Shown here: piece after piece, positions 1,586-36,516 of the stretch
Layout of the letters: each line of letters opens with the position of its first letter
Position numbering within the stretch: the first letter of the stretch is position 1
Source of the DNA: a virus
Length of the DNA: 64,000 bases
Virus record (IMG/VR): IMGVR_UViG_3300025133_000027
Location: 1 to 64,000 of that record
Strand: one strand, 5' to 3'
Position numbers and translations under genes: made by a program
Notes under the pieces: model-generated
What the model saw: only the letters and a program-made list of their open reading frames with translations
What the model was told of the DNA's origin: nothing
Databases searched by the model: none

Positions 1586-1602
1586 GATAGAACGAAAAAA
1601 GA

Positions 1603-1662
1603 GGGACCTGAATAAAGAGTGCTCGCTATGGAACCACTCTCTTTGTCTCGATAAACGGTTCA
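1603..1662 (+). ncRNA. pseudoknot RNA motif, copy 1
   Basis: P1 GGGAC/GTCTC; loop TGAAT pairs with GTTCA after AAAC; hairpin inserted in loop. Confidence 0.55.
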
Positions 1663-1670
1663 CATACAAC

Positions 1671-1728
1671 GCTCCTGAACGATGAGCCTGGACATCCCTG
1701 GATGTTTGTTATAATACTAAACTGTTCA
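1671..1728 (+). ncRNA. pseudoknot RNA motif, copy 2
   Basis: GCTC-CTGAACGAT-GAGC ... AAAC-TGTTCA. Confidence 0.65.
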
Positions 1729-1756
1729 CATACGATTTCGGCCCTTTATGAAGGGG

Positions 1757-1785
1757 TTGAACATAAGTCGAAATCCTGATATGAT
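1757..1785 (+). promoter_or_regulatory. sigma70-type early promoter with AAGTC in spacer
   Basis: TTGAAC-17 nt-TATGAT. Confidence 0.65.
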
Positions 1786-1801
1786 GGATGAAGAAAAAGG
1801 C

Positions 1802-1853
1802 AGCCTGAACAAAAAAGCGTTGATAAGCGCCCCTTTAAGCTTGATAACTGTTC
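1802..1853 (+). ncRNA. pseudoknot RNA motif, copy 3
   Basis: AGC-CTGAACA...GCT ... AAC-TGTTC. Confidence 0.5.
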
Positions 1854-1883
1854 CTAAACGAAACATCGACCCTGAGATAAGGG

Positions 1884-1912
1884 TTGACTTAAAAGTCCAT
1901 CTTCGATAGAAT
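1884..1912 (+). promoter_or_regulatory. sigma70-type promoter upstream of large ncRNA
   Basis: TTGACT-17 nt-TAGAAT with AAGTC in spacer. Confidence 0.7.
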
Positions 1913-1918
1913 GATGGA

Positions 1919-2800
1919 ACGAAAAGCGGGCGGTATGGCGTCCCACGAAAGAATAGACACTGGCAACAGCGTCAAAGAGAGCGTTCACAAACTCTCACCG
2001 ACCAAGCTTCTTGGTTGGCTCATCTATACAAGACACGGTTAGCCCGATCCATGGGCAGGTCACTCTCAAAGGTGGCTTTAACTGGTGTTGAAGAAGTTGG
2101 TCCCTGGTGAGGGAATAGAGAAACCTAAGCCGGTTTCCCTTGAAAGGGGGAAACACAAGGCAGGCTATCAAAGACAGGGCAGGGATGCCAATAAGCCAAT
2201 GAATCCATCTTCAATGCTAGTAAATACTAAGTGTTAGCTCGCTCCCAAGCAGTGCAAGGCCCGCAAGCCAAGCGCAACGAGCATATTGATGGTCCAAGTT
2301 TGGAATAACTGAAGACCAAAAAAGGTAGGGTAAAGTCTCGCAAGGACGAATGCCAGATTGCGTGTTGTATTCTGAAGCTCAAAAGGCTTCGGAGCGACTG
2401 ACAGAGCACGAAATCAGTGATGAATATAGCTCAAGGTAGAGCATCTGAATATTAATCAGAAGGTTGTTAGGTCGAACTAACTATTTTTTAAGAGAAAGGA
2501 AAGTCTCTGTCGATTGCAATTCAAAGAATCCTAAACCTACTCCTGCGAAGGAAAGTAGGCTGTCAAAACTCCCAAGGTGGAGACAGTTGGTGGAAAGTTG
2601 AAGACTCTGGGGCGGCCACCCTAGAACTGATACGGAAAGCCGAGTGAGATTGCAATCAAGAAGGTAATGCCTCCTTCTAAAAATGGCGGATTTTGACTCT
2701 TACAATCGAGAGGTTGTGGATAAGTTTTTAACGGCGCACGGGAGTGTAGCTGGTACGGAAACGAAAGAGGGTCTGTAACAACGGGTAGTCTCACCGTTAA
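1919..2800 (+). ncRNA. large structured ncRNA, probably GOLLD-like (ends approximate)
   Basis: ~880 nt with no credible ORF, right after a strong promoter; many short hairpins with GCAA/GCGA/GAAA-type loops; embedded tRNA-like domain; beside a phage tRNA cluster. Confidence 0.6.
2421..2487 (+). pseudogene. degenerate tRNA-like domain inside the large ncRNA (ATT at anticodon position)
   Basis: D arm GCTC-AAGGTA-GAGC; anticodon arm TCTGA-ATATTAA-TCAGA; T-like arm GTTAG-GTCGAA-CTAAC; weak acceptor stem, no CCA. Confidence 0.6.
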
Positions 2801-2860
2801 TAGTAAGTTTTAATAAAGGTGTTCCTGGGGATGAACGGTTCTAAACTCCCTCCAAACGAT

Positions 2861-2942
2861 CAAGAGTCCTGAGCATGAAAGGCGAAAGGTTCGATCCCTT
2901 TGCTAGTGTAAAAACTAGTCCACGGCTTGGCAAAAACTGCCC
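2861..2942 (+). ncRNA. pseudoknot RNA motif, copy 4 (degenerate; insert has a T-loop-like hairpin)
   Basis: GTC-CTGAGCA ... AAAAAC-TGCCC with one mismatch; insert AAAGG-TTCGATC-CCTTT. Confidence 0.45.
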
Positions 2943-2960
2943 CCAAACGAAAGGAATAAG

Positions 2961-3284
2961 ATGATTTATGTAGTAGTCTCCCAATATGAAATTGGAAGTG
3001 ATATTAATGTTGAGTGTTTAACAGAAGACCCACAAAAAGCATCTGACGTTCTTGGAAGGGTGTGGACTGATTATGATGGATTCTATGAGAATGGACGCAT
3101 TGGTTATCGGAAACACAATTCCGAGGAATTTTTAGACTCAGCTCCAAATGTCACTGACGGAACGTCTGACGGTATAGGTCCTGGTGGCGGTTATGCTTGG
3201 GTTAAATACGAGAAAGGAAGAATTATACAATTTGCTGTAGAAGAGGGTGTCCAAGCAGAGATCATCTGCGGAGAATTAACTTAA
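2961..3284 (+). CDS. hypothetical protein
   Basis: ORF with AAGGA SD. Confidence 0.7.
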   Translation: MIYVVVSQYEIGSDINVECLTEDPQKASDVLGRVWTDYDGFYENGRIGYRKHNSEEFLDSAPNVTDGTSDGIGPGGGYAWVKYEKGRIIQFAVEEGVQAEIICGELT

Positions 3285-3298
3285 CGAAACCGGATGTT

Positions 3299-3356
3299 TC
3301 CTCCTGAGCACGAGGATTCACCTCGCTTGCTACGCAAGCATTAAACAAAACTGCTT
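3299..3356 (+). ncRNA. pseudoknot RNA motif, copy 5
   Basis: TCCTC-CTGAGCAC-GAGGA ... AAAAC-TGCTT; ends 3 nt before tRNA-Glu. Confidence 0.7.
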
Positions 3357-3359
3357 TAC

Positions 3360-3435
3360 GCAGCTATAGCCAAATGGTTAAGGCCCCTGATTTTCATTCA
3401 GGAGATTGTCGGTTCGAATCCGTCTAGCTGTACCA
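3360..3435 (+). tRNA. tRNA-Glu(TTC)
   Basis: Acceptor GCAGCTA/TAGCTGT; CCTGA-TTTTCAT-TCAGG; TTCGAAT loop; CCA. Confidence 0.9.
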
Positions 3436-3520
3436 AGACTTAATAAGTCTTTCAACCGCATAATCCTGCATTGTCAATATGGCGATGATGTGGGACCTGT
3501 CTGCTAATATATTTGCAGCT

Positions 3521-3555
3521 ACACCTGAATATGTGTGGGGCCTATGAAACTGTTC
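3521..3555 (+). ncRNA. pseudoknot RNA motif, copy 6
   Basis: ACAC-CTGAATAT-GTGT ... GAAAC-TGTTC. Confidence 0.7.
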
Positions 3556-3563
3556 CCATACCA

Positions 3564-3667
3564 TACAGACACGATGGTTTGACGAGTGAGATTGATTATC
3601 TCATTATGCTCTAATCAAGTATACCAACCAACAAGTTGGCGTGGAGGTTCGATTCCTCCTGTTTGTA
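3564..3667 (+). ncRNA. tRNA-like RNA with extra arms
   Basis: Acceptor ACAGACA/TGTTTGT; T arm GGAGG-TTCGATT-CCTCC; three internal hairpins; no CCA. Confidence 0.5.
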
Positions 3668-3732
3668 ACTCCGCTGATTGTATTGCGCCTCTTTAGAGGT
3701 AGCGCGGATCATTGATGCCTTAAAAGTGGCAT

Positions 3733-3768
3733 AAGGCCTAAGCAAGCCTTGGTCAGAGAAACTGCTTA
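3733..3768 (+). ncRNA. pseudoknot RNA motif, copy 7
   Basis: AAGGC-CTAAGCAA-GCCTT ... GAAAC-TGCTTA (compensatory TAAGCA/TGCTTA). Confidence 0.7.
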
Positions 3769-3775
3769 AAACCAT

Positions 3776-3851
3776 TGCAGGAAGAACGTTGGATTTCAGC
3801 CAGTCTCATAAGCTGTGCGTAACGTCGGTTCAATTCCGGCTCCTGCTACCA
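3776..3851 (+). tRNA. tRNA-Met(CAT), 1:72 mismatch (initiator-like)
   Basis: T-GCAGGA/TCCTGC-T-A-CCA; CAGT-CTCATAA-GCTG; TTCAATT loop. Confidence 0.8.
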
Positions 3852-3859
3852 AAATAAAC

Positions 3860-3950
3860 GTCACCTGGGTATATGACTTGGTGTGGTCCGTTTTTAGTAG
3901 TGCTCTGTTGTAAACACGACATCACCTAATCCGCACACGCTAAACTACCC
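3860..3950 (+). ncRNA. pseudoknot RNA motif, copy 8
   Basis: GTCA-CCTGGGTATA-TGAC ... TAAAC-TACCC (compensatory GGGTA/TACCC). Confidence 0.65.
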
Positions 3951-3979
3951 GCCCTCAAGTCTAGAAAAACTGTTTATAC

Positions 3980-4060
3980 AGGGTTGTATCGCCTCGTCCT
4001 GATAAGACGTAGAAAGCGTAATCTGGTTACATGTGAGTTCAAATCTCACCTGCCCTACCA
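3980..4060 (+). tRNA. atypical tRNA-Ile(GAT): no D arm, long variable region
   Basis: AGGGTTG/CTGCCCT-A-CCA; CGTC-CTGATAA-GACG; GTGAG-TTCAAAT-CTCAC; only 8 nt where the D arm should be. Confidence 0.7.
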
Positions 4061-4117
4061 TAATGAAGCGTGTGACAGTAGTTCTTAGATATGGTTAAGT
4101 TCGTACATCACAAATGT

Positions 4118-4153
4118 CCTCCTGAGCATGAGGTTGCGCCCAATAAACTGTTC
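4118..4153 (+). ncRNA. pseudoknot RNA motif, copy 9
   Basis: CCTC-CTGAGCAT-GAGG ... AAAC-TGTTC. Confidence 0.7.
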
Positions 4154-4165
4154 CATAACATAGGA

Positions 4166-4231
4166 GGACCTGAATAATCTGCATGATCACGCGGCGCGTG
4201 GTGGTGTGGGCCTGTCCGTCAAAACTGTTCA
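4166..4231 (+). ncRNA. pseudoknot RNA motif, copy 10 (hairpin inserted in loop)
   Basis: GGAC-CTGAATA[insert]GTCC ... AAAAC-TGTTCA. Confidence 0.65.
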
Positions 4232-4270
4232 CCATACAGTGGCTTTCTTCTTATGAAGTTTGCTGACACA

Positions 4271-4303
4271 CCTCCTTAGCACGAGGGAGCCCAAAACTGC
4301 TAA
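4271..4303 (+). ncRNA. pseudoknot RNA motif, copy 11
   Basis: CCTC-CTTAGCAC-GAGG ... AAAAC-TGCTAA (compensatory TTAGCA/TGCTAA). Confidence 0.7.
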
Positions 4304-4356
4304 TTATAAATATCACTGGCAAAAACTATATAACGAAAAAAAATACGGAAAATAAT

Positions 4357-4647
4357 ATGACACACAAGAAAGTAAACAGCCTCTTCTACTTTGAGGCGAA
4401 AGATCCCGATCCAGTTTACATGCAGTTTGGTATTCAGATCACAATAGTGCCTAAACACTTTTACGATACAGAAGGGTATATGTATGATGAACATATCTCT
4501 ACTCTTCTTGAAGTTCTAGGTGGGAAAGCCCCTGACTACATGGGAGAAGAGTGCGAGGGAACGTTCTCAGCAGAGAGTAAGACTCTTGAAGAGGTAATCA
4601 AAGATCTCAAGGACCTTGGCTTCGAAGAGAAAGTCTTCTCTTTCTAG
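4357..4647 (+). CDS. hypothetical protein
   Basis: 96-aa ORF between RNA genes. Confidence 0.7.
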   Translation: MTHKKVNSLFYFEAKDPDPVYMQFGIQITIVPKHFYDTEGYMYDEHISTLLEVLGGKAPDYMGEECEGTFSAESKTLEEVIKDLKDLGFEEKVFSF

Positions 4648-4671
4648 AAAGATTAGCTGCTTATCTATCCA

Positions 4672-4700
4672 TTGAACAATAAGTCAAATCTAGATATAAT
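4672..4700 (+). promoter_or_regulatory. sigma70-type promoter for tRNA cluster
   Basis: TTGAAC-17 nt (with AAGTC)-TATAAT. Confidence 0.75.
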
Positions 4701-4720
4701 GAGAGGGTGAAAAGAATAGT

Positions 4721-4798
4721 GCCTCTGTGGCTCAACTGGATAGAGCATTTCGCTACGAACGAAAAGATTTGCAGGTTCAAATCCTGCCGGGGGCTCCA
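4721..4798 (+). tRNA. tRNA-Arg(ACG)
   Basis: Canonical cloverleaf; TTTCG-CTACGAA-CGAAA; CCA. Confidence 0.92.
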
Positions 4799-7309: not shown

Positions 7310-7352
7310 GGACTTCTTCCAGCTTGTGAAGAAGTCCCCTTTTTGGTATGAT
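7310..7352 (+). terminator. intrinsic terminator hairpin overlapping a sigma70 promoter
   Basis: GGGACTTCTTC/GAAGAAGTCCC then T-run; TTGTGA(7324)-17-TATGAT. Confidence 0.65.
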
Positions 7353-7371
7353 GTAAGAGCGAAAGGGAGAG

Positions 7372-8121
7372 GTGATGAAAATTCAATTCATGAGCGATCT
7401 CCACCTAGAGTGGATGGGAAAAAATAGAAGGATCTCATTTGTAGAGTCCCTGCCGGTAACGGGAGATGTTTTGGTCCTGGCAGGAGATATTACAGAATAC
7501 TCAGCCTTTGTAGAGACAATGACACAGTTCGCTAAGAAATGGCCGCATGTTGTTCATGTTCCCGGTAATCATGAATATTATCGTTCCAATAAGGGAACAA
7601 TTAATAACTGTGCATCTAAGATGATGCGAAGATTTCCCAACTATCACTTCTTGTGTGATAGCGTGGTTGAGGTTGATGGGGTTAAGTTTGTTGGCTCTAC
7701 TCTATGGTTTAGAGAGACTGTGGCTAACTTCATTGATAGACGCCTGATGACAGACTATACGATCATTCAAGGCTTTAAGCGCAACGTGTTTGATTGGAAC
7801 CGAGCTTGCATTAAATTTCTTAATAAAAATGTAACAGAAGGCTGTGTGGTAATTACCCACCATGCTCCTTCGGAGAAGAGTGTAAGTGTTAATTTCAAGT
7901 ATGCAAAACAGAATGCTTTGTATTATTGTAGTATGGAAAAATTGATGCTTGATAGAAGCCCAAAGCTCTGGATCCACGGTCACATGCACGATCCTGTTTT
8001 CTATGAAATTGATAAGACAACAGTAATCTCTAATCCTAGAGGTTATGAGGACATTCACGGAACAGGGGATCGCAAGATTGGGCTCGAAAGATTTGTTCCA
8101 GAACTAATTTTTGAGGTATAA
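7372..8121 (+). CDS. calcineurin-like metallophosphoesterase
   Basis: DLH, GD, GNHE, HH, GHMH motifs. Confidence 0.9.
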   Translation: MMKIQFMSDLHLEWMGKNRRISFVESLPVTGDVLVLAGDITEYSAFVETMTQFAKKWPHVVHVPGNHEYYRSNKGTINNCASKMMRRFPNYHFLCDSVVEVDGVKFVGSTLWFRETVANFIDRRLMTDYTIIQGFKRNVFDWNRACIKFLNKNVTEGCVVITHHAPSEKSVSVNFKYAKQNALYYCSMEKLMLDRSPKLWIHGHMHDPVFYEIDKTTVISNPRGYEDIHGTGDRKIGLERFVPELIFEV

Positions 8122-20729: not shown

Positions 20730-21069
20730 CGGTTCCACGGTAAACATAAATAGTCTAAATAACTTAGGAGGTTATAAGACGCACAAGCAAGTCCTTGATA
20801 TGACTTGCGAAAAGTGAAACTATCAGCAACGCGGGAATGGTAATATATTCAAGGGGTTAAGAACTCCTCGTCAGGCAGGCTCATAACTTGCCCTCGCAGC
20901 CACAACCCAGCGAAATCGCTAAGGAAACTTGCCGGATGGCTTCACCATCAACTATGAGGCACGAAACTTCAATGATTTCGCTGGGTTGCACCATAACACA
21001 CCGTCAACGCTTGCAAGGCAACGCGCAGCGCATCTTGACGGTATTTACGAACAATATCAAGGAGTTATC

Positions 21070-24052
21070 ATGCAAGTGTATGTTATTCAGTATCTATACG
21101 CCTTCGAAATGGATAAGACCATTGAAGTGATTGAAATCAATGAGGATTTGCTGAAACGTAAGATATATAAAGTGTTCGAAGCAATGTTACTAGTCGAAAC
21201 AACCGGGGAAGGTAGTGAAATCTTTGATGAATCGCTGATGAAGCGAAACGGTAAGAAAATCAAAAAGTTTACCGAAGGTTGGTATACCTACGGTGATTTT
21301 GATAATGCAATTGATGTTATTATCAGAAAAGTCTATCAATAACAAGGAGTTACAACAATGACTAACAAAAACAATGGGTTTCGCGTAAGGTTCTTTATTG
21401 CAAGCCGGCCCAAGCCGATAATCACTAAAGATTTCAAGGAGTTCCCCGAGGCTGCGCGTTACGCTAAAACTATGCGAAATACTTGCGGATCTGGTTGGAA
21501 ACTTTCTTATGAAAATTTCCCAATACTTTCAGCAGGTTGGGAAGACAGTCACGGTGCTTTATGTGCCATTGACCCTAACGACTAAATCACCAACAATAAC
21601 AGGGAGTTACGGCAGTGAGTGGATTGGAGTTGGACAAAGTGCTACATGCACGCGAAATCCTTGCGGAAATGGATATTCCGATATTCCGCAAGGATCTTCG
21701 CAAGTTGAGCAACCTAAGTTGGTTAGCTCGTAACGTCTCGATTCGAAACGGGAATCACCCGAAGCTCAATGAATTGCTCTCGATTCTGCGAGAAATTAGA
21801 AAAGAGCAAAGATAACAGGAGGTTAACATTTCTTATGAAAACTAAGTTAAAGCTATATGCACAAGCACAAGGCCGCGTAATTACTAACGTTTCTTACGAT
21901 TGTGAAATTCCTGCATTACGCGACCTTAATTTGATTTTGCTAAACCCGCTAGATCCTTGGACTTTCCAGTTTAAGGCAACCCGCCGAAAAGATAGGTTTA
22001 TTTGGACTTCAAAAACAACCATTGTCACAATGGTCGTAACTGCGCCATATGATTAGTGTTTCGTGCCTGCTTGTCTTTCCTTTTGTTTTTCTGGTGTTGC
22101 CGGGGATTGAAACAGACTAATATCATTGCAGTTTTGGAATAATGAACAGCGTTCGATTCGCTGTGCTGCAACCAATTGAAATCATGGAGGAAACATGCAA
22201 TATGAGCTATGGAAGGCTGTCATTGTGTCTTTTGTCAGTTATATCGCAGTGTTTGCGGTTGCCCTGATAATTGTTACAATTACTTAACAAAAACAAGCAC
22301 TTAGGAGTTAACACATGGGAAGGCAATATTGTTACTTAGTTACAAAGAGCACAGGATACGAGATTGGAGATGGTCCGCAAGTCTTTGATTATAAACCCGA
22401 ATTGGTTGACGATTACCTTAATGTAGTTATCGGAACAATTACAAAGGGTAAGATGATCGTCACACTGAATCACTCTTTAGAACCTAACGGAATTGAAGGA
22501 TATATCACAGGGTTATACACAACTGATATTGTTGACGGTTGGATTCGAGTGCAAGCCATTGAGATCAATAGGAGATACGATGCCAAATAAGAAAAGCCTT
22601 AAAAAACAACTAGCTGAAGTCAAAGCGCATAACAAGGTTTTGCGTAAGGATAACAGCAAGTTGCAAGCCAATTTGAGAAAGTCTATTCAAGACGGTTGTG
22701 ATTTGAGTGAAGAACTCAATAAAATCGCGGACTTATTGCATCCCTTGATGCAGTACGCAGATCACCTATAAAAACAACAACTTGGAGAACACATGAAAAT
22801 CGTCAATTATCTAAGACCAAAAACTCTCAAGAGTTTCAACAACTTGAAGATCGGACAGTGTTGCTTCGCAACCTATGACAATTGTGAGCCTTTTGTTGCA
22901 ATGGTGATCGATGGTCATGAACTCGTTGTAAACATTACGGATTCTGAGTTATACGAGATCAACGACCCAGCCCTTGAATTCATTGAGGAAATTCCGATGG
23001 ATCAGGCTCGACTAATCATCGGGAAACCTGAATAAAAACAACAACTTGGAGAACACATGAAAATCATCAATGAAATCAATGGCAACGAGGCCGAGTTGAC
23101 TGAGGCTGAAATCCTCTTTCTTATTGAGGACTTGGCGAGGAGCATTATTGAGTGCCAAAAGGTCAATGATTCCAAGCGGTTGTGCTTGCAAGTATCAATC
23201 AACAACATGACGAGAATCTTCAAGAAATTCAAGGGGTTGCTGGCCGAGCCGGAACCCGTTGAAACCTTTGAGATCCGTGACTTGACGACTGAAGAATTCG
23301 ATGAATTACACGCAGTTACAGACTTTTGGCACGAGGAAGGTCAAACCCCTTATAATCAATCAGATTTTGACAATTCGGTAACTCTCCGAAAACTATCCGA
23401 AAAGGTAAGTGACTGTTATTACGAGGTTTGGGAGGATTACGATTCTCTCAGTACAATCAAGGGGTTCACTCTCAAAGAGATTGAATTGGCTCTAAGTATG
23501 CTAAAGCATGACGATTTCTTCGATACCCCGTATGTGAGTGACTCCACGATCGCAAAGGTCAATAAAGCAATAAATTCAACCACTTAGCAACAAAGGAAAA
23601 CACAGCATGGAAAAAGCATACGGACTTACAGGGTTAACCAAGCATCAAATTGATGAATTAAGTTACACACTTAGCGTTGAGGAGCATCTTGACGACGCAA
23701 CCGTTGAGCAAGTCAGTGAAATCATTGACAACATGAATGATGATGAATTCAATAAATTCATGAACAATATCAGCAACTTGCGAGGAAACTAATGAAAATG
23801 ATCAATAAAATCTATGTAGTAGAGCTTTCGTCGCATGATGGTCGAACTCAAGCTAGCTTTAAAACTCAGCAAGGTGCCAAAAGGCTTATAGCGAGACTAG
23901 AAAAGCAAAAAAAGTTTGTTGAAGAAAACAGCAATGATCTCCGCGAACACGAACTCAGGTACAACGACAAGGAAACAGGGCAACAATTCCGATTCTCACA
24001 TATTACCTTACCCACACGTATACATTTCTATACAATGCCCCTTCATCAGTAA
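21070..24052 (+). other. cluster of ~10 small hypothetical early genes (21070-21342, 21358-21585, 21615-21815, 21835-22056, 22315-22590, 22580-22771, 22793-23035, 23057-23587, 23607-23792, 23792-24052)
   Basis: Co-oriented short ORFs with GGAG SDs, several SDs embedded in IHF-like sites. Confidence 0.65.
22126..22174 (+). ncRNA. tRNA minihelix (acceptor + T arm + CCA only)
   Basis: TTGCAGT/GCTGCAA-CCA; ACAGCG-TTCGATT-CGCTGT; 13-nt linker. Confidence 0.7.
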
Positions 24053-27941: not shown

Positions 27942-29315
27942 ATGGCAATCAAACTTATTATAGAATCAAAACAACTCCTAACCGAACTTAAGTGGAACGA
28001 AGTCCTTAAGCGCTTTAAGTCCAAAAAGTTTTTGAGGTTTGCGAAAAAACTCTCTCAAGACGGTGCTCTTGGTGGTGAAGCTTATTGGAAGGATCACTAT
28101 TCAACGCAACCGGGCCAACCTGCTTTCGAAAGATATCTCGAAGTCCTTGAGGACTACCTAGCTGGAAGTGAGGAAAATCCCTCGGACTTCATCCCAGAAG
28201 ATATTGAAGATAAAGAAAAAGCTGAAGCTCTTAACTGGCTTATTAGTGTTGCTATGAAAGCTCAGGCTCTTCCAAAACTAGAAGATGAAATCTATATGAG
28301 CCTTGAACTTTTTTATCAAATAAAAAACGAAGCCCCTCATTTGCTCAAAAAGAATAAATCTCTTATGACGTTTGAGGGATGGCGTCATCTTGAAGTTGTT
28401 GTTGTGAAGGCTCGTTATGAATTCATGGCTCACAGAGCCAAGAAAGAAGAAGAAGAATTTGCCCGGAAAGGTGGAGGAGAAGGCGTCAATCTTATTTATG
28501 AAGATCAGAAATGGTCAGTATATATCCCCGAAACACAGATGGCAGCACGATTCCTTGGAAGAGGAACAACTTGGTGCACAGCAACCAATCCCAAAACTTC
28601 AAGAAACCATTATCATGTCTATCACACAAAAGAAAGTCCTTTATATATCTTTATCAGCAAAGCTGACCCCACTGTTAAATACCAGTTTTCATATATGAAA
28701 ACAGACTTCGCAACCAGAGAAAATAAGCAAGCCCCAGAGCTTAAGTTTCTTGAATTAAATGAAATAATTAAAAAAATTGGCGCTCCTGTGATTGCTCCGT
28801 TCAACCTTAAAATGGCCAACAACTCTTTGATCGAGCATTTTGAAGGTGGTTATAGGACAAAAATAAGATCCGATGAGAAATACTTCAACAATGAAGGGAA
28901 GCTGCATCGAGTTGACGGCCCTGCTATGACGAACTATGATTTGAGTGGGCGACCCTCTAAGGAAACTTGGTTTGAGGATGGTATAAGACACCGCGAAGGT
29001 GGCCCTGCTGTTACATTTTTCTTTGGAGATTCCGATGAAGGGGATTCTTTCGTTTGGTTCTATAAGGGATATAAACACCGAGAAGGTGGCCCTGCTGAAC
29101 ATAGTACTGATTCAATCAGCGAGACATGGTATGACCACGGCTCTATTCACCGCGAAGATGGACCTGCCATAACATCTCTAGACTGGCTAACAAAAAAACC
29201 TATTTACAATTATTATCTCTATGGAGAAAAATTTACCAAAGAAGAGTTTGAGACTAGAACAAGTGCAGCACTTAATGAATCTCTTGAGCGTGTTCTCATG
29301 CTTGCGCGTGGCTAA
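27942..29315 (+). CDS. carrier protein: N-terminal leader + WCTA (PcfJ-like) domain + HREDGPA repeats, no cargo
   Basis: IPETQMAARFLGRGTTWCTA; four HR-(D/G)GPA repeats; ends LNESLERVLMLARG. Confidence 0.85.
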   Translation: MAIKLIIESKQLLTELKWNEVLKRFKSKKFLRFAKKLSQDGALGGEAYWKDHYSTQPGQPAFERYLEVLEDYLAGSEENPSDFIPEDIEDKEKAEALNWLISVAMKAQALPKLEDEIYMSLELFYQIKNEAPHLLKKNKSLMTFEGWRHLEVVVVKARYEFMAHRAKKEEEEFARKGGGEGVNLIYEDQKWSVYIPETQMAARFLGRGTTWCTATNPKTSRNHYHVYHTKESPLYIFISKADPTVKYQFSYMKTDFATRENKQAPELKFLELNEIIKKIGAPVIAPFNLKMANNSLIEHFEGGYRTKIRSDEKYFNNEGKLHRVDGPAMTNYDLSGRPSKETWFEDGIRHREGGPAVTFFFGDSDEGDSFVWFYKGYKHREGGPAEHSTDSISETWYDHGSIHREDGPAITSLDWLTKKPIYNYYLYGEKFTKEEFETRTSAALNESLERVLMLARG

Positions 29316-29545
29316 GATTCAATATGTTCTCTTCCAAAGACTGGGTATTTCACGTAGGCATAATTTATGAAAGCTTTTTCGATTCTGTGCTTTAGATATC
29401 TAAAGCCTCCTTCTTCTTCTAAATAGCTCTTGCCTGCATATTGGTAATATGCTCGTCTTGGCCCTAGAGTATCACCTCTATTTACCGGGACATACACCCA
29501 ATATGTGCCACAATCTAATTGATATACCATTGCATTATCACTCAT
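29312..29545 (-). CDS. YPVF-tail family protein
   Basis: KYPVFGREHIES. Confidence 0.75.
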   Translation of the reverse strand: MSDNAMVYQLDCGTYWVYVPVNRGDTLGPRRAYYQYAGKSYLEEEGGFRYLKHRIEKAFINYAYVKYPVFGREHIES

Positions 29546-29754
29546 AGGTTGCCTCCTCTAAAAACCGGATATCTCTTATATTTTAAACCATCAGTTATAT
29601 TCTTCCAGACACAATAATCCCAACCCATGATGCCGTCATGGTAAGACTTTCTGATTGGAAGATAGAATCTCCAATAGAAACCCATTGAGTTTGACCGGAC
29701 ATATAGCATTGTTGTCCCATCTTCTAAGTTAAAAGTATAACCATCATATTTCAT
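29542..29754 (-). CDS. YPVF-tail family protein
   Basis: KRYPVFRGGNL. Confidence 0.75.
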   Translation of the reverse strand: MKYDGYTFNLEDGTTMLYVRSNSMGFYWRFYLPIRKSYHDGIMGWDYCVWKNITDGLKYKRYPVFRGGNL

Positions 29755-30011
29755 TATTCACTCATAAATACTGGGTATTTGCGTATACTATGTGTGCATG
29801 TGTCGGCAACATACTGATTAATAGATCTAATGACTGTCTGTTCTGACAACAACGTCGGTGTTGTAAACCGCTCTTTTCTTGTTTTAACATATTCAGCGTA
29901 ATCATATTGCGACCCCTTCCGTCCCGTGAATATGGTAAGGGAATAGTCAATATAAAGAAAAGAATAATATTGATCGCTTAGAACAATTCCATGATATTTT
30001 TTTTGTTTCAT
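29754..30011 (-). CDS. YPVF-tail family protein
   Basis: RKYPVFMSE. Confidence 0.75.
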   Translation of the reverse strand: MKQKKYHGIVLSDQYYSFLYIDYSLTIFTGRKGSQYDYAEYVKTRKERFTTPTLLSEQTVIRSINQYVADTCTHSIRKYPVFMSE

Positions 30012-30670
30012 AATTGTGGCCTATAGTTGGGATCATTGTCAGAACACCATTTTAGCTTAAATACACTCTGCGGCACTCGCTCCTTTAAATAGACCCCTTT
30101 GATAGTAGCTTGAATATCTCTTTCGGTCATCCCATAGAGATTACCTTGAGCTGTCTTATAGGCATGGTATTCATCCATAGCGAGGTATATGGATCTCATT
30201 CTCGGAGAAAGTGAAAGCATAAATTGTGTATTAGCATCAGTAGTTGGTTCATACCCACCAGAGGTATGAACTCTGTTTATTAGATGGTTTACTTCATGAA
30301 CTAGACAGTTTATCAATTTTAAATCTTCAGTTCTTTCAACTAGACATTCATCTTGTTCTATGGTGCGTAATCTATCTGGGTTCTCTAAGAGAAGATCTCC
30401 ATAGAATCTCGCTTTTGAGAGATAGATCCTAGTAGCGTCTGCTGCTGCATCAAATTTGTCTATTTTGTCAACTGTTAATATATAAGTTCTCTTAACGGAA
30501 TCAAAATTTTCGTAAAATGGTCTATCCTTAGATATGTCCTCACCTATAACATGTATTGGAACATTTCTAGATCTTATATATTCTGCGGTATTCCTGACTA
30601 CTTGGCTGTCATGAACCTTCATTTTCTTTAAAATGTTTAAAATTTGTGGATCTTTATTTCTGTTTATCAT
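30008..30670 (-). CDS. HExxH zinc-metallopeptidase-like protein
   Basis: LVHEVNH ... DEYHAY. Confidence 0.7.
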   Translation of the reverse strand: MINRNKDPQILNILKKMKVHDSQVVRNTAEYIRSRNVPIHVIGEDISKDRPFYENFDSVKRTYILTVDKIDKFDAAADATRIYLSKARFYGDLLLENPDRLRTIEQDECLVERTEDLKLINCLVHEVNHLINRVHTSGGYEPTTDANTQFMLSLSPRMRSIYLAMDEYHAYKTAQGNLYGMTERDIQATIKGVYLKERVPQSVFKLKWCSDNDPNYRPQL

Positions 30671-30849
30671 CTTGATTCAAGTCTCCTGGTTAGTTCTTCA
30701 ATAAGTTTAGCAGCTCTTATAATTCTTTCTTGCATTTCTCTCTTATACATACCAACCTCCTTTCTTGTTTCTATTATAATATAATTATATTTTCTCGGCA
30801 ATAGTTTCAAACTTAGCAAACTATTTATTATACGAACGAGGAATTTTAA

Positions 30850-33141
30850 GTGATTAAAATCAAACTACAAACAAAAAATCTTACTCTAAGTGCAGAGGAA
30901 CAATCAGTAAGAAAAGTTCTGGCCGAATGGCAAGAAATAATGAATACTGCTGTCATCACGGAAGGTGTTCTTTATAAGCAGGGCATGAAAGATAACCAAC
31001 CTAATGGCCCAATTGCACAGTTGCAGATGAAATTAATTAAGCTAAAATTTATGAAAAAAGCCTCGCTGGGTGTTGATCAGAAATATCTTGGAACTTACGG
31101 GCTTTTAACCAAACGAGCTGTTAGAAATTTTCAAAAGAAAGCATTCCCGAATAAAAGAGACGAGTGGGACGGACAAGCTGGTAAAAGAACTCTTGATGCA
31201 CTAGGTGGTAAAGTACCGCCTGCAACAGGTTCTAGAACTAGAGCCCCTTCTACTAGACAGAGTTCAAGACTTGCAAAGCGAAAAGCAGGGACTAAAAAAT
31301 CTAAATATTTTAAAGGCAAAAAAAGACCTAATATATCATTTATCAAAAAAGCTCCATCTAGTTCAAAAATGACAACTCTTAAGCAGATTGCTATGGGGAA
31401 GCTTGGCGTAAGTGGGCAACTCAAAGCAGGTGGTAAAGGCCGTGAAGTAGAAGCTCTTAAAAGGTGGTTAGTCAGCGCTAAACTCTTTGAGGGTAACGAT
31501 CTAAGCGCGGTATATGGTTCGGGTAACGGAGCTATGACGTTGAACCTATATGATGAACATACGATAAATGCAGTTAAGAGGTATCAAGAACGGTTAAGTC
31601 TTGAAGTAACAGGAAAAATAAGCCAAGAAACTGCAATTGCGCTCATGCTTGGTATTCAACAGGTAAGACTTCCAAAAAAATCAAAAACACCACTTCGTTT
31701 TAGTGAAGAACCTAAACAAGCCAAACAAACCAAAAATATTATTTACACAAAAATATTTGGTGTACCAAACCCATCAAAGTTTGCAGTGGCAAGCATTCTA
31801 AAAAATAAAACTGATATGGTTGATCGAAGCTATCAACTAGCGTTAAGAAATGCTGTCACTAACAAAGACGAGCTTTATAGTTATATGTCTAAAGGATTCG
31901 CAACGGCTGTAAAAAATCAAGGCGGAAAAGGGGGAGCGGAATTTTATGGGTACTTTGCTGGTTTAGCCAGAAAAACGATTAAAGAAAAAGGATGGACTGT
32001 ATGGGATACTAAATTTAAAGAATTTGCATTGAACCCAATCATGTTGCGCGTTATGTCTGGCAACAATATTGACTCGGAAAAAGTGCGTTACCTCGTATCA
32101 AGTATTTTTGATATAGATACTTTAAATGCTCAAATGTTTGCTTCAAAAATGAAGAGTAATAAAACTGAATTCACAAAAAAGGAACAAAAAGTTATTAGAT
32201 ACCTTGGTGGGGAGAATAGCTATTTAGCATTCAACTTAAGAAAGACAGAACTATCTTGGGTGCTTGCATGTGGAAGAAAGAATTCTGGTTCTGGTAAGTG
32301 CAAAGCACTCAAAGAGAGAAACATAAATAACCTATCTGAAATGATTCACCCAAGCGACTTGGTTTTGAAGAAATGGAGAGCTACATCTGGCCACCTAGAT
32401 GTTTATAAAAACATAAAAGGAAAAATTAATAAAGATATAGAAAAATTGATAAATCAAAGGGAGCTTTATAAATTAAAAAACCAATCTAACTGGACTCAAA
32501 TCAATAGAATACTCCAAGTTTTCAAAGAGATTGGAAAAGGACAAAATAAAGATATACGACAGGCTAGAGACATGGGGCCTTTGCCTATTGGTGTCTATAG
32601 AGTCTCTGATTATCAAGAGAAAAGTCATAAGAGCTTCGAGGGGCATTTCAGCAGAAACATGTCAACAAAAGTTAGTGAACAGTGGAAAATAATTAAAAGT
32701 CAAAAAGAAAGAAACTTATTGATAAAACTAATGAAAAAATTTAACTTTGTGCCATCTAGGGCACGAGACTCCAAGTCAACTGTCGGAGCTGATGGTAAGA
32801 GATACAGAGGTAGACGACCCACTACTTGGAATGTAAGCTCTTTAACTTCAGCAGCTTATGCGTGGGGTCGTCAGAGGATGTGGTTGACCAAACTAAACGT
32901 TCCCGATCCGAAAGCTAGAAAAAGAAGCGGATTTTCAATTCACGGCGGCGCTGCTTTCGGCTCTTCTGGGTGTATCGACTTAGGCCCAGCTATGGGTAAT
33001 TTTTCTAGCTTTTATAAAAAAGCGGTAGGTAAGTCTGACATATTACTAATTTCAACCGCTGGAAACCTTCCTAACAGGGTTTCTAAGAAGTATTACTTAG
33101 GCAAAGAAGTTGGTAGCAACGTAGAAGGGGCATCTGTTTAG
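30850..33141 (+). CDS. peptidoglycan-binding protein with C-terminal Tlde1/DUF2778-like (L,D-transpeptidase fold) domain
   Basis: Two PG_binding_1-like repeats (T--AV--FQ...DG-AG--T); GPLP-G-Y; RSGFSIHGG...SSGCI. Confidence 0.75.
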   Translation: MIKIKLQTKNLTLSAEEQSVRKVLAEWQEIMNTAVITEGVLYKQGMKDNQPNGPIAQLQMKLIKLKFMKKASLGVDQKYLGTYGLLTKRAVRNFQKKAFPNKRDEWDGQAGKRTLDALGGKVPPATGSRTRAPSTRQSSRLAKRKAGTKKSKYFKGKKRPNISFIKKAPSSSKMTTLKQIAMGKLGVSGQLKAGGKGREVEALKRWLVSAKLFEGNDLSAVYGSGNGAMTLNLYDEHTINAVKRYQERLSLEVTGKISQETAIALMLGIQQVRLPKKSKTPLRFSEEPKQAKQTKNIIYTKIFGVPNPSKFAVASILKNKTDMVDRSYQLALRNAVTNKDELYSYMSKGFATAVKNQGGKGGAEFYGYFAGLARKTIKEKGWTVWDTKFKEFALNPIMLRVMSGNNIDSEKVRYLVSSIFDIDTLNAQMFASKMKSNKTEFTKKEQKVIRYLGGENSYLAFNLRKTELSWVLACGRKNSGSGKCKALKERNINNLSEMIHPSDLVLKKWRATSGHLDVYKNIKGKINKDIEKLINQRELYKLKNQSNWTQINRILQVFKEIGKGQNKDIRQARDMGPLPIGVYRVSDYQEKSHKSFEGHFSRNMSTKVSEQWKIIKSQKERNLLIKLMKKFNFVPSRARDSKSTVGADGKRYRGRRPTTWNVSSLTSAAYAWGRQRMWLTKLNVPDPKARKRSGFSIHGGAAFGSSGCIDLGPAMGNFSSFYKKAVGKSDILLISTAGNLPNRVSKKYYLGKEVGSNVEGASV

Positions 33142-33815
33142 GATTTATGCACATAAACTAGAATCCCGTTCTTGATTCTATCGAACATTTCTTCTGCAAG
33201 ACTATCGGGTAACATAAAACAACCTGCGCTATGAGTCATACCGTTTGCAGGATGAAAAACGATTCCCCTTTTCAGCGCATTATTATTAATACCACTTTCC
33301 AAACCTTTTAATCTTAAGCTGTAACCATACTTTCCATCATAAGTATTCAAGGTTACAAAACTACCTTTCGAGGACAAATAACTATTTGGAGTATTTGAAA
33401 ACCTACTAGCATATCTCCCTCCAGTCCTAGAAGCATGAGAGACTTTAGATCTAAAAACTGTTTTGTTTTCTTTAGTGTCATAAAGCCAGAATCTTTTAGA
33501 TGTGTATGGTAGATCAAAATTGATTATTGCGATGTATCTTTTATTCTTAACGTATCGCCTAAACTTTCTCTGTTCTTTCTTTGCGATATTAAATATGTTT
33601 TTATCAGTATTGTGTTTTACGTTTGTGCTGTTGTTCGAATTGCTATTTATTTTTATTGTTGCTGAATTCTTTCTAGCCAGTGGCTCATAATAACTGTTTG
33701 CAGTGTTTTTATTGCAATCAGATTCAAGTAACCAATTACATACATGAGAATCATCGTTACCACAAGCAACGAACATTAATAAGGACATTAGTACTAGTTT
33801 TTTCATTTCTATCAC
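33138..33815 (-). CDS. murein L,D-transpeptidase catalytic-domain (YkuD_2-type) lipoprotein
   Basis: Lipobox-like FVAC; FSNTPNS--SS-G; L-GLE-G-N-NA--RGIVFH; SAGC. Confidence 0.85.
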   Translation of the reverse strand: MIEMKKLVLMSLLMFVACGNDDSHVCNWLLESDCNKNTANSYYEPLARKNSATIKINSNSNNSTNVKHNTDKNIFNIAKKEQRKFRRYVKNKRYIAIINFDLPYTSKRFWLYDTKENKTVFRSKVSHASRTGGRYASRFSNTPNSYLSSKGSFVTLNTYDGKYGYSLRLKGLESGINNNALKRGIVFHPANGMTHSAGCFMLPDSLAEEMFDRIKNGILVYVHKS

Positions 33816-34009
33816 CTCTTAAATGACTATTTTATTTTAACCACTAGAAACTCTCTAGTGCCTCGCCTTTCTTTCTTGTTTCTATTATACTAAATATTTC
33901 GTGGCGAATCAACTAGAAAAAACTTGGGCTTGGTAAAAGCAAAAGTCACTAAATTCAGCGGAAATAAATCTGCTGAACTAATCACAAGAAAAACAGAACT
34001 ATTTACTAT

Positions 34010-34759
34010 ATGAAGAAACTTAAACGAATTTTAAAACTAGCAGAAATCAATTATGTCAATGCCAGAAACCCACATAGACATATTCCAAATAGAAATATTA
34101 TCCGTGCCAATACTATGTTTATGCTGTCCATTCTAAAAGCTAATATCCAAATAAGAGACATATTCGGTTTACATATAGGAAGAGATGAGTGGCTTAAGTC
34201 AACATTTGATATTGTAAAACAAGTTTCATTATTATCAAAATCTAAAATAAAAAAATTCTTAGGGAATGGTGCTTTCGGTGCAGCTTTTGAACTTGACAAC
34301 GGCAGGGTTTTGAAAATCGGGCGTATCCTGGATCAGGAAACCTCAAGAAAAAGTTATACTGGTATCCTATATGGTAAGTATGATGAACCAGAATTTAAAG
34401 ATATTTCAGTCAAAAATACGCTCCCGGTATTTGATAGTGGCGTCATTAAGAGACCTAGCAATTGGATTAACCGTAATCTTCAATGGTCTGAAATACCTCT
34501 CCTGAAGATGCTAGATTGGGAACAAAAGGAAGCCTGGGACGAGTTATCTGATCTACTTCATTTTATTGATGACCCTCAAGAAATTGCGAGTGTAATCGAT
34601 ATCATGGACACCAATATATTAGATAAAATCGGTGATAAAGAATCTATCATCAAAGCATTAGAAGCAACCTGCACTCTTGAGGGCGATCTTGGTGATGTTC
34701 ATGCAGATAATGTAGGACAGTTTATTCAGTCGGGAGAATTTGTCGTATTCGACAACTAA
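34010..34759 (+). CDS. minimal protein-kinase-like protein
   Basis: LGNGAFG, VLKI, WSEIP, DVHADNVG, ends VFDN. Confidence 0.8.
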   Translation: MKKLKRILKLAEINYVNARNPHRHIPNRNIIRANTMFMLSILKANIQIRDIFGLHIGRDEWLKSTFDIVKQVSLLSKSKIKKFLGNGAFGAAFELDNGRVLKIGRILDQETSRKSYTGILYGKYDEPEFKDISVKNTLPVFDSGVIKRPSNWINRNLQWSEIPLLKMLDWEQKEAWDELSDLLHFIDDPQEIASVIDIMDTNILDKIGDKESIIKALEATCTLEGDLGDVHADNVGQFIQSGEFVVFDN

Positions 34760-34770
34760 ACTATTATACT

Positions 34771-35637
34771 ATGAATGATCTAAAAAGAATATTATTGTTA
34801 GCAGAAATTAACTATATTGATGACAGAAATCCTCAAAGACAGGTTCTAAACAGGAACAACATTCGCTCAAACACATTGTATCTCTATAAAAAGCTTTTAC
34901 ATAATTTTCATCTTAGAAAAGTTTTTAGAATCAATAGTCCAAGAAATGTAAATCTAGATGTTGACGAGTACAAGAAAGAAATTCTTAAAGTTATATTTAA
35001 TATTGTAATTCAAGTCCCTCTACTTTCTCAATATAGAATCGTAAGCGTCCTTGGATCTGGTGAACTTGGGTTGGTTCTTGAAATAAAGAATGGACGAGCA
35101 TTAAAGATTGGATACGAGACAGCCTGGGAAACTCCCAAAGAGAAAAGTGTTGCTATCACATATAATATGAATGGCGAAGATCCTGATATCCTTACTTTAA
35201 ATAAAAACCTGTTACCTATTTTTGGAAATGGAACAATCAAAGTAGATAAGAAGTCTACTCTATACTTCAAAGATCGCTATGCTTTTGGGAAGGAAGGCTC
35301 TAATATGTATTGGACAGAGATTCCTCTCTTGCAAATGCTTTCTATTGATGAAAAGCACATCTGGGATAGCGTTCATTATAATACAAAGACATATCTAATG
35401 AATCTTGGAAAGGAACATTTGTTTAAAAATCCTCAAGAATTAGAATCTGAAATTATTGAAGATCTTATTAAATGGTCTACAACTAGGACACTTAGCACAG
35501 ACGATCGACAGGTTCTCTCAAGAATGATGAAAGCTGTTCTTGCTCAGGTTAAAGTTGATGGCCATTTTAAAGATGCCCACGGTGACAACGTAGGTAAGTT
35601 TATTCAGTCCGGTGATTATGTAGTCTTTGACAATTAG
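34771..35637 (+). CDS. minimal protein-kinase-like protein (paralog)
   Basis: LGSGELG, ALKI, DAHGDNVG, ends VFDN. Confidence 0.8.
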   Translation: MNDLKRILLLAEINYIDDRNPQRQVLNRNNIRSNTLYLYKKLLHNFHLRKVFRINSPRNVNLDVDEYKKEILKVIFNIVIQVPLLSQYRIVSVLGSGELGLVLEIKNGRALKIGYETAWETPKEKSVAITYNMNGEDPDILTLNKNLLPIFGNGTIKVDKKSTLYFKDRYAFGKEGSNMYWTEIPLLQMLSIDEKHIWDSVHYNTKTYLMNLGKEHLFKNPQELESEIIEDLIKWSTTRTLSTDDRQVLSRMMKAVLAQVKVDGHFKDAHGDNVGKFIQSGDYVVFDN

Positions 35638-35644
35638 GAGAAGT

Positions 35645-36508: not shown

Positions 36509-36516
36509 GGATAATT

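Follow-up and report, generated by a model that had tools for sequence, protein, structure and literature searches.

The window, a 64-kb stretch of a 176-kb phage genome, contains a GOLLD RNA, tRNA genes and copies of one H-type pseudoknot. The genome carries 17 such copies, all on the plus strand; 13 lie within the window (12 at 1603–4303 and one at 20787–20826), and the remaining four lie at the other contig end (174958–175476) among genes for tRNA-Leu, Leu, Gly and Pro. The original prediction had described about 11 copies of an H-type pseudoknot pattern in the first of these regions, and both word counts and a script parse agreed with the pattern at those places. The word CCTNRRYA occurs 11 times on the plus strand within 1607–4281 (68 matches on both strands of the window), and AACTRYYY 12 times within 1720–4230 (57 matches in total). 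Parsing of copies A, B, C, E, F, G, I, J and K gave a P1 of 4–7 bp and a P2 with 5–6 of 6 pairs. The predicted sites thus held, one of them (2861) being degenerate and another (3860) having an ambiguous P1, but two further copies in the window (X and Z) and the four at the contig end had been missed. A model built only from this genome's copies (R1) matched the copy cluster and nothing else in the 176-kb genome, the next best match scoring 11 bits.

The GOLLD RNA, which had been overlooked, occupies about 1920–2797 on the plus strand (RF02032, 175.7 bits, E 1e-47). The match lies over the conserved 3′ domain at 2355–2797, exceeds the family cut-off of 150 bits and covers the full model length (1–416); the 5′ domain probably begins near 1920, as judged from the position of a sigma-70-like promoter at 1884–1912 (+, TTGACT-17-TAGAAT). 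A tRNA (50.1 bits) is embedded in the GOLLD linker at 2420–2489. Two more sigma-70-like sites were found on the plus strand, one at 1557–1585 (TTGTGA-17-TATACT) about 18 nt upstream of copy A and one at 1757–1785 (TTGAAC-17-TATGAT, with extended TG) upstream of copy C. Own promoters had been proposed for the first three copies; the first and third have such sites, but the second has none. Since 1920–2797 is a GOLLD RNA, these three copies are most likely part of its leader and not stand-alone genes.

Copy A (1603–1662) has the P1 GGGAC/GTCTC, a 30-nt hairpin insert in L2 and 5 of 6 pairs in P2 (33.8 bits with R1), and copy B (1671–1728) the P1 GCTC/GAGC, a 32-nt L3 insert and 6 of 6 P2 pairs (38.4 bits); an alternative register of copy B begins at 1681. 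Copy C (1801–1854; 25 bits) combines a short P1 and a long insert with the tail AAC-TGTTC. Copies C and X flank GOLLD, copy X (2820–2852; P1 TGTTC/GAACG, P2 GGGGA/TCCCT) beginning 23 nt past its 3′ end. Copy D (2861–2943) is degenerate or uncertain, with 4 of 6 P2 pairs (16.4 bits, E 0.39 with R1); its insert contains a T-arm-like hairpin. Copy E (3299–3357) lies 14 nt past the stop of ORF 2961–3284 and 2–3 nt 5′ of tRNA-Glu (3360–3435), copy F (3519–3556) is compact with an L3 of 9 nt, and copy G (3732–3768; P2 TAAGCA/TGCTTA) lies 8 nt 5′ of a tRNA-Met-like gene (3776–3851). Copy H (3860–3951) has a clear P2 (GGGTA/TACCC), a long insert and the ambiguous P1; a weak tRNA (3980–4057) follows after about 29 nt. 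Copies I (4118–4154), J (4166–4231, with a 37-nt hairpin insert in L2) and K (4271–4303; P2 TTAGCA/TGCTAA) form a tandem, the last of them 53 nt upstream of ORF 4357–4647. The distant copy Z (20787–20826) has a P1 of 7 bp and the P2 TTGATA/TATCAG; it begins 57 nt past the stop of a T5orf172/GIY-YIG-like ORF and is followed by a 245-nt ORF-free stretch. Each copy of this genome has its own P1, P2 and inserts, a CAYAC tail recurs among them, and tRNAs lie 2–8 nt downstream of copies E and G and of two copies at the other contig end (e2 and e4).

A related-locus search starting from ORF 2961–3281 or from a 662-aa exonuclease-domain protein found no relatives of this phage, and blastn and tblastn searches of cultured phages yielded nothing beyond short, distant matches.

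Fold and distribution of the motif

In its compact form the phage motif measures about 28 nt and consists of a P1 of 3–4 bp with an invariant C-G top pair, an L1 of a single C, a 6-bp P2, an L2 of 1 nt and an L3 of two A/U bases followed by AAAC. The 8-nt loop reads C-UGARYA-N, the last base being U or A in 230 of the 252 copies among the matches listed, and its UGARYA pairs with a downstream URYUCA to form P2. AAAC is preceded by two bases, mostly U/A, and followed by U; in the compact set AAAC and the next U were imposed by the collecting search itself. Among the copies of this genome AAC never varies, and at least 90% of them continue with a T. The CT and AAC linkers, predicted to be fixed, are so, but the fixed letters extend further, to CCT and to a P1 top pair that is C-G in all 17 copies of the genome.

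Each copy is an RNA that folds on itself into a compact H-type pseudoknot, as covariation of both helices demonstrates. In the alignment of this genome's copies (A1), 94% of the P2 cells pair, versus 30–41% after sliding of the partner strand; changes on both sides are seen in four of the six pairs, and none of 500 shuffles reached the observed score. P1 was assessed in an alignment of 145 sequences (A2), in whose selection it had played no part. The pair of columns 5–18 is GC in 61, AU in 29, CG in 27 and UA in 25 sequences and unpaired in none, the pair of columns 6–17 is UA in 70 and AU in 63, and the top pair (columns 7–16) is CG in 142 of 143. Conversely, in a set picked on P1 alone, P2 was fully paired in 32 of 39 sequences versus 15.7 in shuffles, with 14 distinct P2 sequence pairs. 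The covariation claimed originally for both helices is therefore borne out. G-U pairs occur in the motif copies, and only 5 of 252 copies among the matches listed lie inside a same-strand ORF versus 50% of random positions; the motif is thus an RNA on the strand given here.

The 17 copies of this genome are long-loop variants of the compact motif, with hairpins in L2 or at the 5′ side of L3, that is, 5′ of AAAC, and the inserts had rightly been described as optional hairpins. A model of the compact motif (R2) gave only half-matches in this genome, because all its copies have a longer L2 or L3. R1 in turn picked up compact copies of other phages at 20–30 bits, and since it was made from this genome alone, long-loop and compact copies belong to the same family. 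Among the scanned matches listed, 226 of 293 have a gap of 7 nt between loop and AAAC, so the form common elsewhere lacks an insert. The first IMG/VR pattern allowed gaps of 8–38 nt, outside which this canonical gap falls, and returned mostly chance matches. The multicopy small-RNA system with variable cargo envisaged at the outset does not agree with a common form that has no insert and sits between operon genes.

The compact motif is widespread, many matches being listed in each of three IMG/VR scans and in one scan of bacterial genomes. Phages whose bins belong to very different phyla have it, as does a giant-virus MAG, and bacterial assemblies assigned to many phyla also carry it. A search of Rfam 15 with the window and 12 other loci, run with gathering as well as E-value cut-offs, assigned the motif to no family, in agreement with the initial reading, in which the family was not recognised, and a literature search found no paper describing it in phages. 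A 28-nt fold with clear covariation is thus abundant in phages, yet neither Rfam 15 nor the papers searched contain it. This distribution bears on the idea that the motif serves as an address tag, which would bring neighbouring RNAs into the GOLLD nanocage or assist cage assembly. Five copies flank GOLLD here, and GOLLD is an empty 14-mer cage whose cargo is not known (bioRxiv 10.1101/2024.12.08.627333), both of which count for such a tag, but the 12 copy-bearing loci from other genomes have no GOLLD match and GOLLD is much less widespread than the motif, which makes this role highly improbable.

Placement of the copies and candidate functions

Compact copies are almost never found inside genes and sit between the genes of ordinary operons. 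Among the matches listed, 92 of 252 copies have the stop codon of an upstream ORF 5–9 nt ahead of P1; the distance is 4 nt in three of the 252 and never shorter, except in four copies overlapped by the stop codon itself. A tRNA 5′ end follows P2 after 3–9 nt in 19 of 252 copies among the matches listed, and 16 of 23 tRNA-adjacent copies also have an ORF stop within 12 nt upstream. A Shine-Dalgarno sequence with start codon begins 6–17 nt past P2 in 70 of 364 copies, and a T-run directly follows P2 in 36 of 376 versus 4 in the control, again among the matches listed. In one locus (L365) hammerhead cleavage sites lie about 5 nt past two copies, one of the hammerheads scoring above the Rfam threshold. 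The 6 nt 3′ of P2 are G-poor, and in another locus (L014) copies stand between a terminator and the next promoter. A location at the 5′ terminus of primary transcripts, as a cap, was rejected as the general context, since a promoter directly upstream is only weakly enriched in the wider set. The distances of 5–9 nt to stop codons and of 3–9 nt to tRNA 5′ ends are directly testable.

The spacing to stop codons could reflect an intercistronic translation insulator, which would stop ribosome sliding or re-initiation or free the next start site from upstream pairing. The knot is as near the stop codon as a terminating ribosome allows, with a spacing floor of 4–5 nt and a peak at 5–9 nt, ribosome-binding sites with their start codons peak 6–17 nt after P2, and coremin, a plant-virus element compared below, blocks scanning ribosomes and stimulates frameshifting. 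Most copies in the window, however, are far from ORFs, in tandem arrays, tRNA spacers and the GOLLD leader, and copies elsewhere precede tRNAs and ribozymes, so that we consider an insulator quite unlikely. The same long untranslated stretches, in which copies cluster here, would suit an element acting on RNA polymerase or Rho, either in termination with the U-run or in anti-Rho action or antitermination over tRNA and GOLLD. T-runs directly after P2 are enriched 9-fold and promoter-proximal copies exist, but a U-run is found in only about 10% of copies and the motif is unlike boxA/boxB or put RNAs; a transcription element is accordingly improbable.

The reading that we prefer, at about even odds, is that the knot would be a protein-independent nuclease roadblock punctuating transcripts. 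The observations are the fold, the strand, a location between genes and constant distances to stops, tRNA 5′ ends, a ribozyme site and ribosome-binding sites; from these, and by analogy with known elements, we infer both the function and its direction. The single C of L1 would cross the deep groove, and the L3 adenines, most likely placed in the minor groove of the short P1, would lock it. Processive RNA-degrading enzymes arriving along the RNA would be stopped at such a putative mechanical roadblock, which would divide long phage transcripts into separately stable pieces and in this phage might shield the GOLLD RNA, tRNA precursors and two small mRNAs. Protection could act in the 5′-to-3′ direction as in coremin, in the 3′-to-5′ direction for the upstream RNA, or in both. 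Of the functions listed originally, an exonuclease block and a processing signal fit the evidence best.

Several observations speak against a roadblock. The Xrn1 resistance of coremin needs a second hairpin right after the spacer, and a hairpin 0–4 nt after P2 is not enriched in the phage copies (134 of 376 among the matches listed versus 119–144 in three controls). For the copies between terminator and promoter in L014, neither direction of protection is obviously useful. RNase J was found above the cut-off in only one of five bacterial genomes carrying a copy, so a 5′-exonuclease block cannot be the whole story, unless these contigs are mis-binned phage DNA. Finally, a universal partner could just as well make contact with the unvarying C of L1, with AAAC and with the G-poor stretch of 6 nt that follows P2.

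Such contacts would be expected of a handle or processing signal that marks cut or bound sites instead of being a passive obstacle to enzymes, and that is recognised by a conserved partner (an endonuclease of the kind of RNase E, Y or P, the ribosome, an Hfq- or S1-like protein, or a phage protein). Letters are invariant beyond the needs of folding (the top C-G, the L1 C, AAAC and the A-U pair closing P2), the 6 nt after P2 are joined in this genome by the recurrent CAYAC tail, and the spacings to tRNA 5′ ends and to the hammerhead site are fixed. On the other hand, the presence of the motif in phages from bins of very different phyla and in the giant-virus MAG makes a phage-specific protein partner unlikely, no conserved gene was seen among the neighbours of the copies, and coremin acts in vitro without protein. 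We therefore regard a handle as unlikely.

Comparison with known RNA elements

As a minimal H-type pseudoknot with an A-rich 3′ tail the motif resembles preQ1-I (RF00522), and a small-molecule aptamer of that kind would agree in size class and topology with the preQ1-I consensus as generally described, in the tail ending AAAC-U and in the few invariant unpaired letters. The loop lengths and context differ, no expression platform accompanies the copies, which stand before tRNAs, after stops and in tandem arrays, and the Rfam PreQ1 model matched no copy at E up to 10; an aptamer is very improbable. With ToxI-type antitoxins the motif shares a pseudoknot and multiple copies, on which the proposal of a decoy against host defence, such as a mimic of type III antitoxins, had been founded. 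ToxI consists of identical tandem 36-nt units beside a toxin gene, but the phage copies form no array of identical units, nothing like ToxN or AbiQ is encoded by the ORFs nearby, and elsewhere most copies are single and between ordinary genes. There is hardly any probability left for a decoy.

Luteovirus frameshifting pseudoknots such as that of BWYV are likewise very compact, with a short stem 1 and a loop 1 of 1–2 nt containing C. They have in common with the phage motif an A-rich loop 3 that ends in AAA before the stem-2 strand, with minor-groove triples, which in the phage motif are predicted. The phage motif differs in being non-coding, without a slippery site, and in following stop codons or preceding tRNAs. 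Known frameshifter knots did not stall Xrn1, according to PMC10321173.

The closest known element is the plant-virus coremin motif (xrRNA_C), which with its Watson-Crick variant xrRNA_WCC occurs in beny-, cucumo- and other RNA viruses (Dilweg et al. 2019, 2023). As described in PMC6546385, PMC10520033 and PMC10321173, coremin has an hp1 of 3–5 bp with a C-G (or U-A) closing pair, a loop beginning with Y and the spacer UUAAACUAC. Of this spacer AAA, C and U are indispensable, and only its 5′ end admits insertions, a UU placed there having lowered stalling slightly. Coremin stalls Xrn1, one nucleotide before hp1, and scanning ribosomes. The phage motif has a short hp1-type stem with a C-G closing pair, C as the first loop base and the same WWAAAC-U spacer, with its inserts placed 5′ of AAAC, where coremin tolerates insertion in vitro; tandem copies occur in both. 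The loop YGAD (or the YGNNAD hexaloops) of coremin is not found, since the phage 8-nt loop fits only at its first C. A pseudoknot between loop and spacer is established in the WCC type and has been suggested for coremin; WCC has three Watson-Crick pairs there and coremin non-canonical contacts, against six Watson-Crick pairs in the phage P2. The last loop base of WCC pairs with the C of AAAC, whereas in the phage motif the facing base is G in only 4 of 252 copies among the matches listed. Coremin belongs to RNA viruses and the phage motif to DNA phages.

Flaviviral xrRNAs (classes 1–2) and the plant-virus class 3 have the same role as that proposed here by analogy, a folded RNA serving as an enzyme-independent brace, but their three-way-junction or ring folds are much larger and have no likeness to the phage motif in sequence or secondary structure; PMC11702639, on class 3 xrRNA, has no bearing on coremin. 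Flaviviral xrRNA also blocks bacterial RNase J1 (PMC5760640), so such blocks are not enzyme-specific. Tentatively, and with less confidence than an even chance, the phage motif may represent the first exoribonuclease-resistant, roadblock-type RNA class in bacterial viruses, akin to coremin, shared with giant viruses and used as a general punctuation mark that would give each tRNA, GOLLD or cistron its own nuclease-proof end, possibly in both directions. If nucleases are indeed blocked, the motif would explain how tRNA arrays, giant RNAs and single cistrons are kept stable in phages, would provide synthetic biology with a very small RNA stabiliser or insulator, and would carry programmed exonuclease resistance beyond the RNA viruses of eukaryotes into the viruses of prokaryotes.

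Pseudoknot copies and their neighbours in the phage genome

The source record is an IMG/VR phage of 176,254 bp (97% complete, 38% G+C), of which the window covers the initial 64 kb, and its genome carries 17 copies of the pseudoknot, every one on the plus strand. Ten of the eleven copies in the original prediction (A to K, at 1603–4303) were sound, including that at 3860 (H), whose first stem (P1) is ambiguous, whereas the copy at 2861 is degenerate, with four of six pairs in the second stem (P2) and 16 bits against R1, a covariance model trained on 14 of the 17 copies. Copy X (2820–2852, plus strand) lies inside the same interval and had been missed, copy Z (20787–20826, plus strand) lies outside it, and four more copies (174958–175476, plus strand) are found at the other contig end among two tRNA-Leu genes, tRNA-Gly and tRNA-Pro. 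Elsewhere in the 176-kb genome R1 gave no match, its best score there being 11 bits.

Parsing of the copies by script showed a P1 of 4–7 bp whose last pair is invariably C–G, a single unpaired C as loop L1, and a P2 in which six bases (U plus five) pair with six downstream bases. The L2 junction is 1 nt long except in copies A, C, D, H and J, where it has 7–37 nt, and L3, between the P1 3′ strand and the P2 partner strand, measures 4–55 nt with (A)AAC at its end. The words CCTNRRYA and AACTRYYY occur 11 and 12 times, respectively, on the plus strand at 1603–4303, and 68 and 57 times over the entire window when both strands are counted. Copies E and G end shortly upstream (in the range of 2–8 nt) of the tRNA-Glu 5′ end and of a tRNA-Met-like gene; at the other contig end, e2 and e4 stand likewise before tRNA-Gly and tRNA-Pro.

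A large non-coding RNA absent from the original prediction, GOLLD (RF02032), was matched at 2355–2797 on the plus strand over the full model length (175.7 bits), and the Rfam search placed a tRNA embedded in it at 2420–2489 (plus strand). Since a good match to a sigma-70-like promoter is located at 1884–1912, GOLLD likely starts near 1920. Two further promoter-like sites (1557–1585 and 1757–1785) lie upstream of GOLLD. Copies A, B and C, located downstream of these sites and upstream of GOLLD, thus most plausibly belong to tandem-promoter leaders running into GOLLD, rather than being three stand-alone small-RNA genes. Copy X starts 23 nt downstream of the GOLLD 3′ end.

Of 19 copies of AACGAAA counted over both strands of the window, eight are on the plus strand within 1591–4764 (among them 1591, 1857, 1918, 2946, 3283 and 4332). 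Two are placed 6 nt past the −10 boxes belonging to the 1557–1585 and 1884–1912 promoters, so the word may mark start sites or processing. Copy Z is followed by an ORF-free stretch of 245 nt (20826–21070) with complementary long-range segments, such as 20908–20921 with 20974–20986, which matched no Rfam family and may be a structured RNA. T-arm-like hairpins (GGTTCGATYCC loops) with no callable tRNA occur at 3560–3670 between copies F and G and at 2885–2905 within the copy D insert; they could be remnants of tRNAs or else tRNA-like modules. Three neighbouring ORFs of HREDGPA-type repeats of about 20 residues, with weak matches to DUF6745, occupy 3–1538, and larger proteins at 27942–40915 are said to contain the repeat as well.

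Support for the fold and its compact form

In this genome, P2 was paired in 94% of cells versus 30–41% with the partner strand slid, both sides change in four of the six pairs, and the observed score was reached by none of 500 shuffles. Sequences from outside the genome are the stronger support for the fold. These were obtained from IMG/VR by three pattern scans, and the figures derived from them refer to the matches listed and are hence lower bounds. For two P2 variants, the gap from CCTxxxxA to AAAC measured precisely 7 nt in 123 of 173 and 103 of 120 matches listed, respectively; because this gap predominates, the common form is a compact knot some 28 nt long, with the consensus NNWC - C - UGAGCA - N - GWNN - WW AAAC - UGCUCA.

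Among the matches listed, 252 unique compact copies were picked by P2 complementarity alone, leaving P1 unconstrained. In a 145-sequence alignment drawn from them P1 covaries cleanly: pair 5–18 was GC in 61, AU in 29, CG in 27 and UA in 25, and unpaired in none; pair 6–17 was UA in 70 and AU in 63; and the top pair was C–G in 142 of 143. In the reverse set, candidates chosen by P1 alone with loops outside the search words (n = 39), P2 was fully paired in 32 versus 15.7 in shuffles, with 14 distinct P2 sequence pairs.

R1, made from this genome only, recovers the compact copies of other phages at 20–30 bits, and R2, the model of the compact form, matches those of this genome by halves only; the knots of this phage are therefore long-loop variants within a single family. 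In H-type pseudoknots a single base is enough to bridge the deep groove when stem 2 has 6 bp, and the minor groove of a 3–4 bp stem 1 can be crossed with five or six. The geometry of the phage motif fits these classical rules.

Genomic placement and distribution of the family

Context statistics were based on simple ORF and tRNA calls, and the sampled P2 variants are biased because the loci were fetched by exact patterns. Only 5 of the 252 listed compact copies fall within an ORF of at least 80 codons on the same strand, versus 50% of random positions. An upstream stop codon stands 5–9 nt before P1 in 92 of the 252 (the peak) and at 4 nt in three; none is nearer, save four in which the stop overlaps. 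This lower bound of 4–5 nt may approximate the mRNA length covered downstream of the A site by a terminating ribosome, and a spacing of 5–9 nt is familiar from frameshift and read-through pseudoknots. Action as a ribosome insulator is rather unlikely.

Nineteen of the 252 listed copies end 3–9 nt upstream of a tRNA 5′ end and one lies within 10 nt downstream of a tRNA; among the matches listed, 16 of 23 tRNA-adjacent copies also have an ORF stop within 12 nt upstream. A Shine-Dalgarno sequence and start codon follow from 6–17 nt past P2 in 70 of 364 matches listed. Directly after P2, a T-run was found in 36 of 376 matches listed versus 4 in the control, and the 6 nt downstream of P2 are G-poor among the matches listed. 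That the motif is a transcription element is improbable. On L365, a Polynucleobacter MAG contig, two copies (minus strand, about 7317–7624) each directly precede a type III hammerhead ribozyme, with the cleavage site about 5 nt past P2 for both; one of the two hammerheads passed the Rfam threshold.

Seven contigs from unrelated bacterial MAGs (L371, L372, L379, L381, L386, L390 and L394) have a common ORF whose end carries an H-C-x-x-G-C-like motif. In L371 the TGA stop of this ORF is, in frame, the TGA within the CCUGAGCA loop of the knot, so that gene end and RNA motif overlap there; the other contigs of the set were judged by similar upstream sequence alone. A 227-kb IMG/VR phage (L022, 7180–8280) contains repeating units of about 300 nt, each with one or two compact pseudoknots and the same GGCGGCAAATCGCC hairpin about 100 nt later.

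A scan of bacterial genomes with one exact variant gave at least 119 stretches versus about 4 estimated by chance; those listed were labelled in their records as Saccharibacteria (many), Chloroflexota, Actinomycetes, Firmicutes, Bacteroidota, Proteobacteria, Cyanobacteria and others. One giant-virus MAG was among the IMG/VR matches listed. Just one or two copies were present in each of five whole bacterial genomes checked, which suggests that the bacterial copies belong to prophages or mobile DNA and not to a host housekeeping element. This wider distribution fits poorly with an aptamer, which is very improbable, and equally poorly with a cargo tag for GOLLD or a decoy against defence, to each of which we give hardly any weight. 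An unlikely further reading is that a universal partner uses the motif as a handle or a processing signal.

A candidate roadblock and its resemblance to coremin

To about even probability, and by analogy, the motif may be a protein-independent mechanical roadblock segmenting transcripts into separately stable units: the knot would divide the transcript, and each resulting unit would be stable on its own. Both Xrn1 and bacterial RNase J1 are stopped by a flaviviral xrRNA (PMC5760640), so that roadblocks of this kind need no enzyme-specific contacts. RNase J was above the cut-off in only one of the five copy-bearing bacterial genomes, and this count, which is subject to MAG binning, speaks against a role directed at RNase J alone. 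A knot just upstream of ribosome-binding sites, tRNAs or GOLLD would protect the downstream RNA from 5′ attack, and such placement, together with that just past promoters in this window, fits this shielding. In the alternative direction, the upstream RNA would end in the knot, followed by a tail that is too small a hold for a 3′ exonuclease; we infer this arrangement because knots stand right after stop codons and 3–9 nt before sites where new 3′ ends would be made, by RNase P cleavage, hammerhead cleavage or U-runs.

Rfam 15 contained no family for any copy from this genome or from 12 other loci, and a literature search found no paper on the motif in phages. The closest comparison is with coremin (xrRNA_C), a plant-virus motif that stalls Xrn1 and scanning ribosomes; it has a 3–5 bp hairpin with a C–G closing pair (G–C is not tolerated), a YGAD loop and a required second hairpin, and its Watson-Crick variant has a stem 2 of 3 bp (PMC6546385, PMC10520033, PMC10321173). 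Stem, closing pair, leading loop C and WWAAAC-U spacer are common to both, and the L3 inserts of this genome occupy the exact place where coremin tolerated insertion. Unlike coremin, the phage motif has a loop of 8 nt and a Watson-Crick P2 of 6 bp, and a hairpin after P2 is not enriched (134 of 376 among the matches listed versus 119–144 in controls). Given these shared and differing elements, the phage motif is best called coremin-like in its probable working, and is at most a candidate member of the coremin family.
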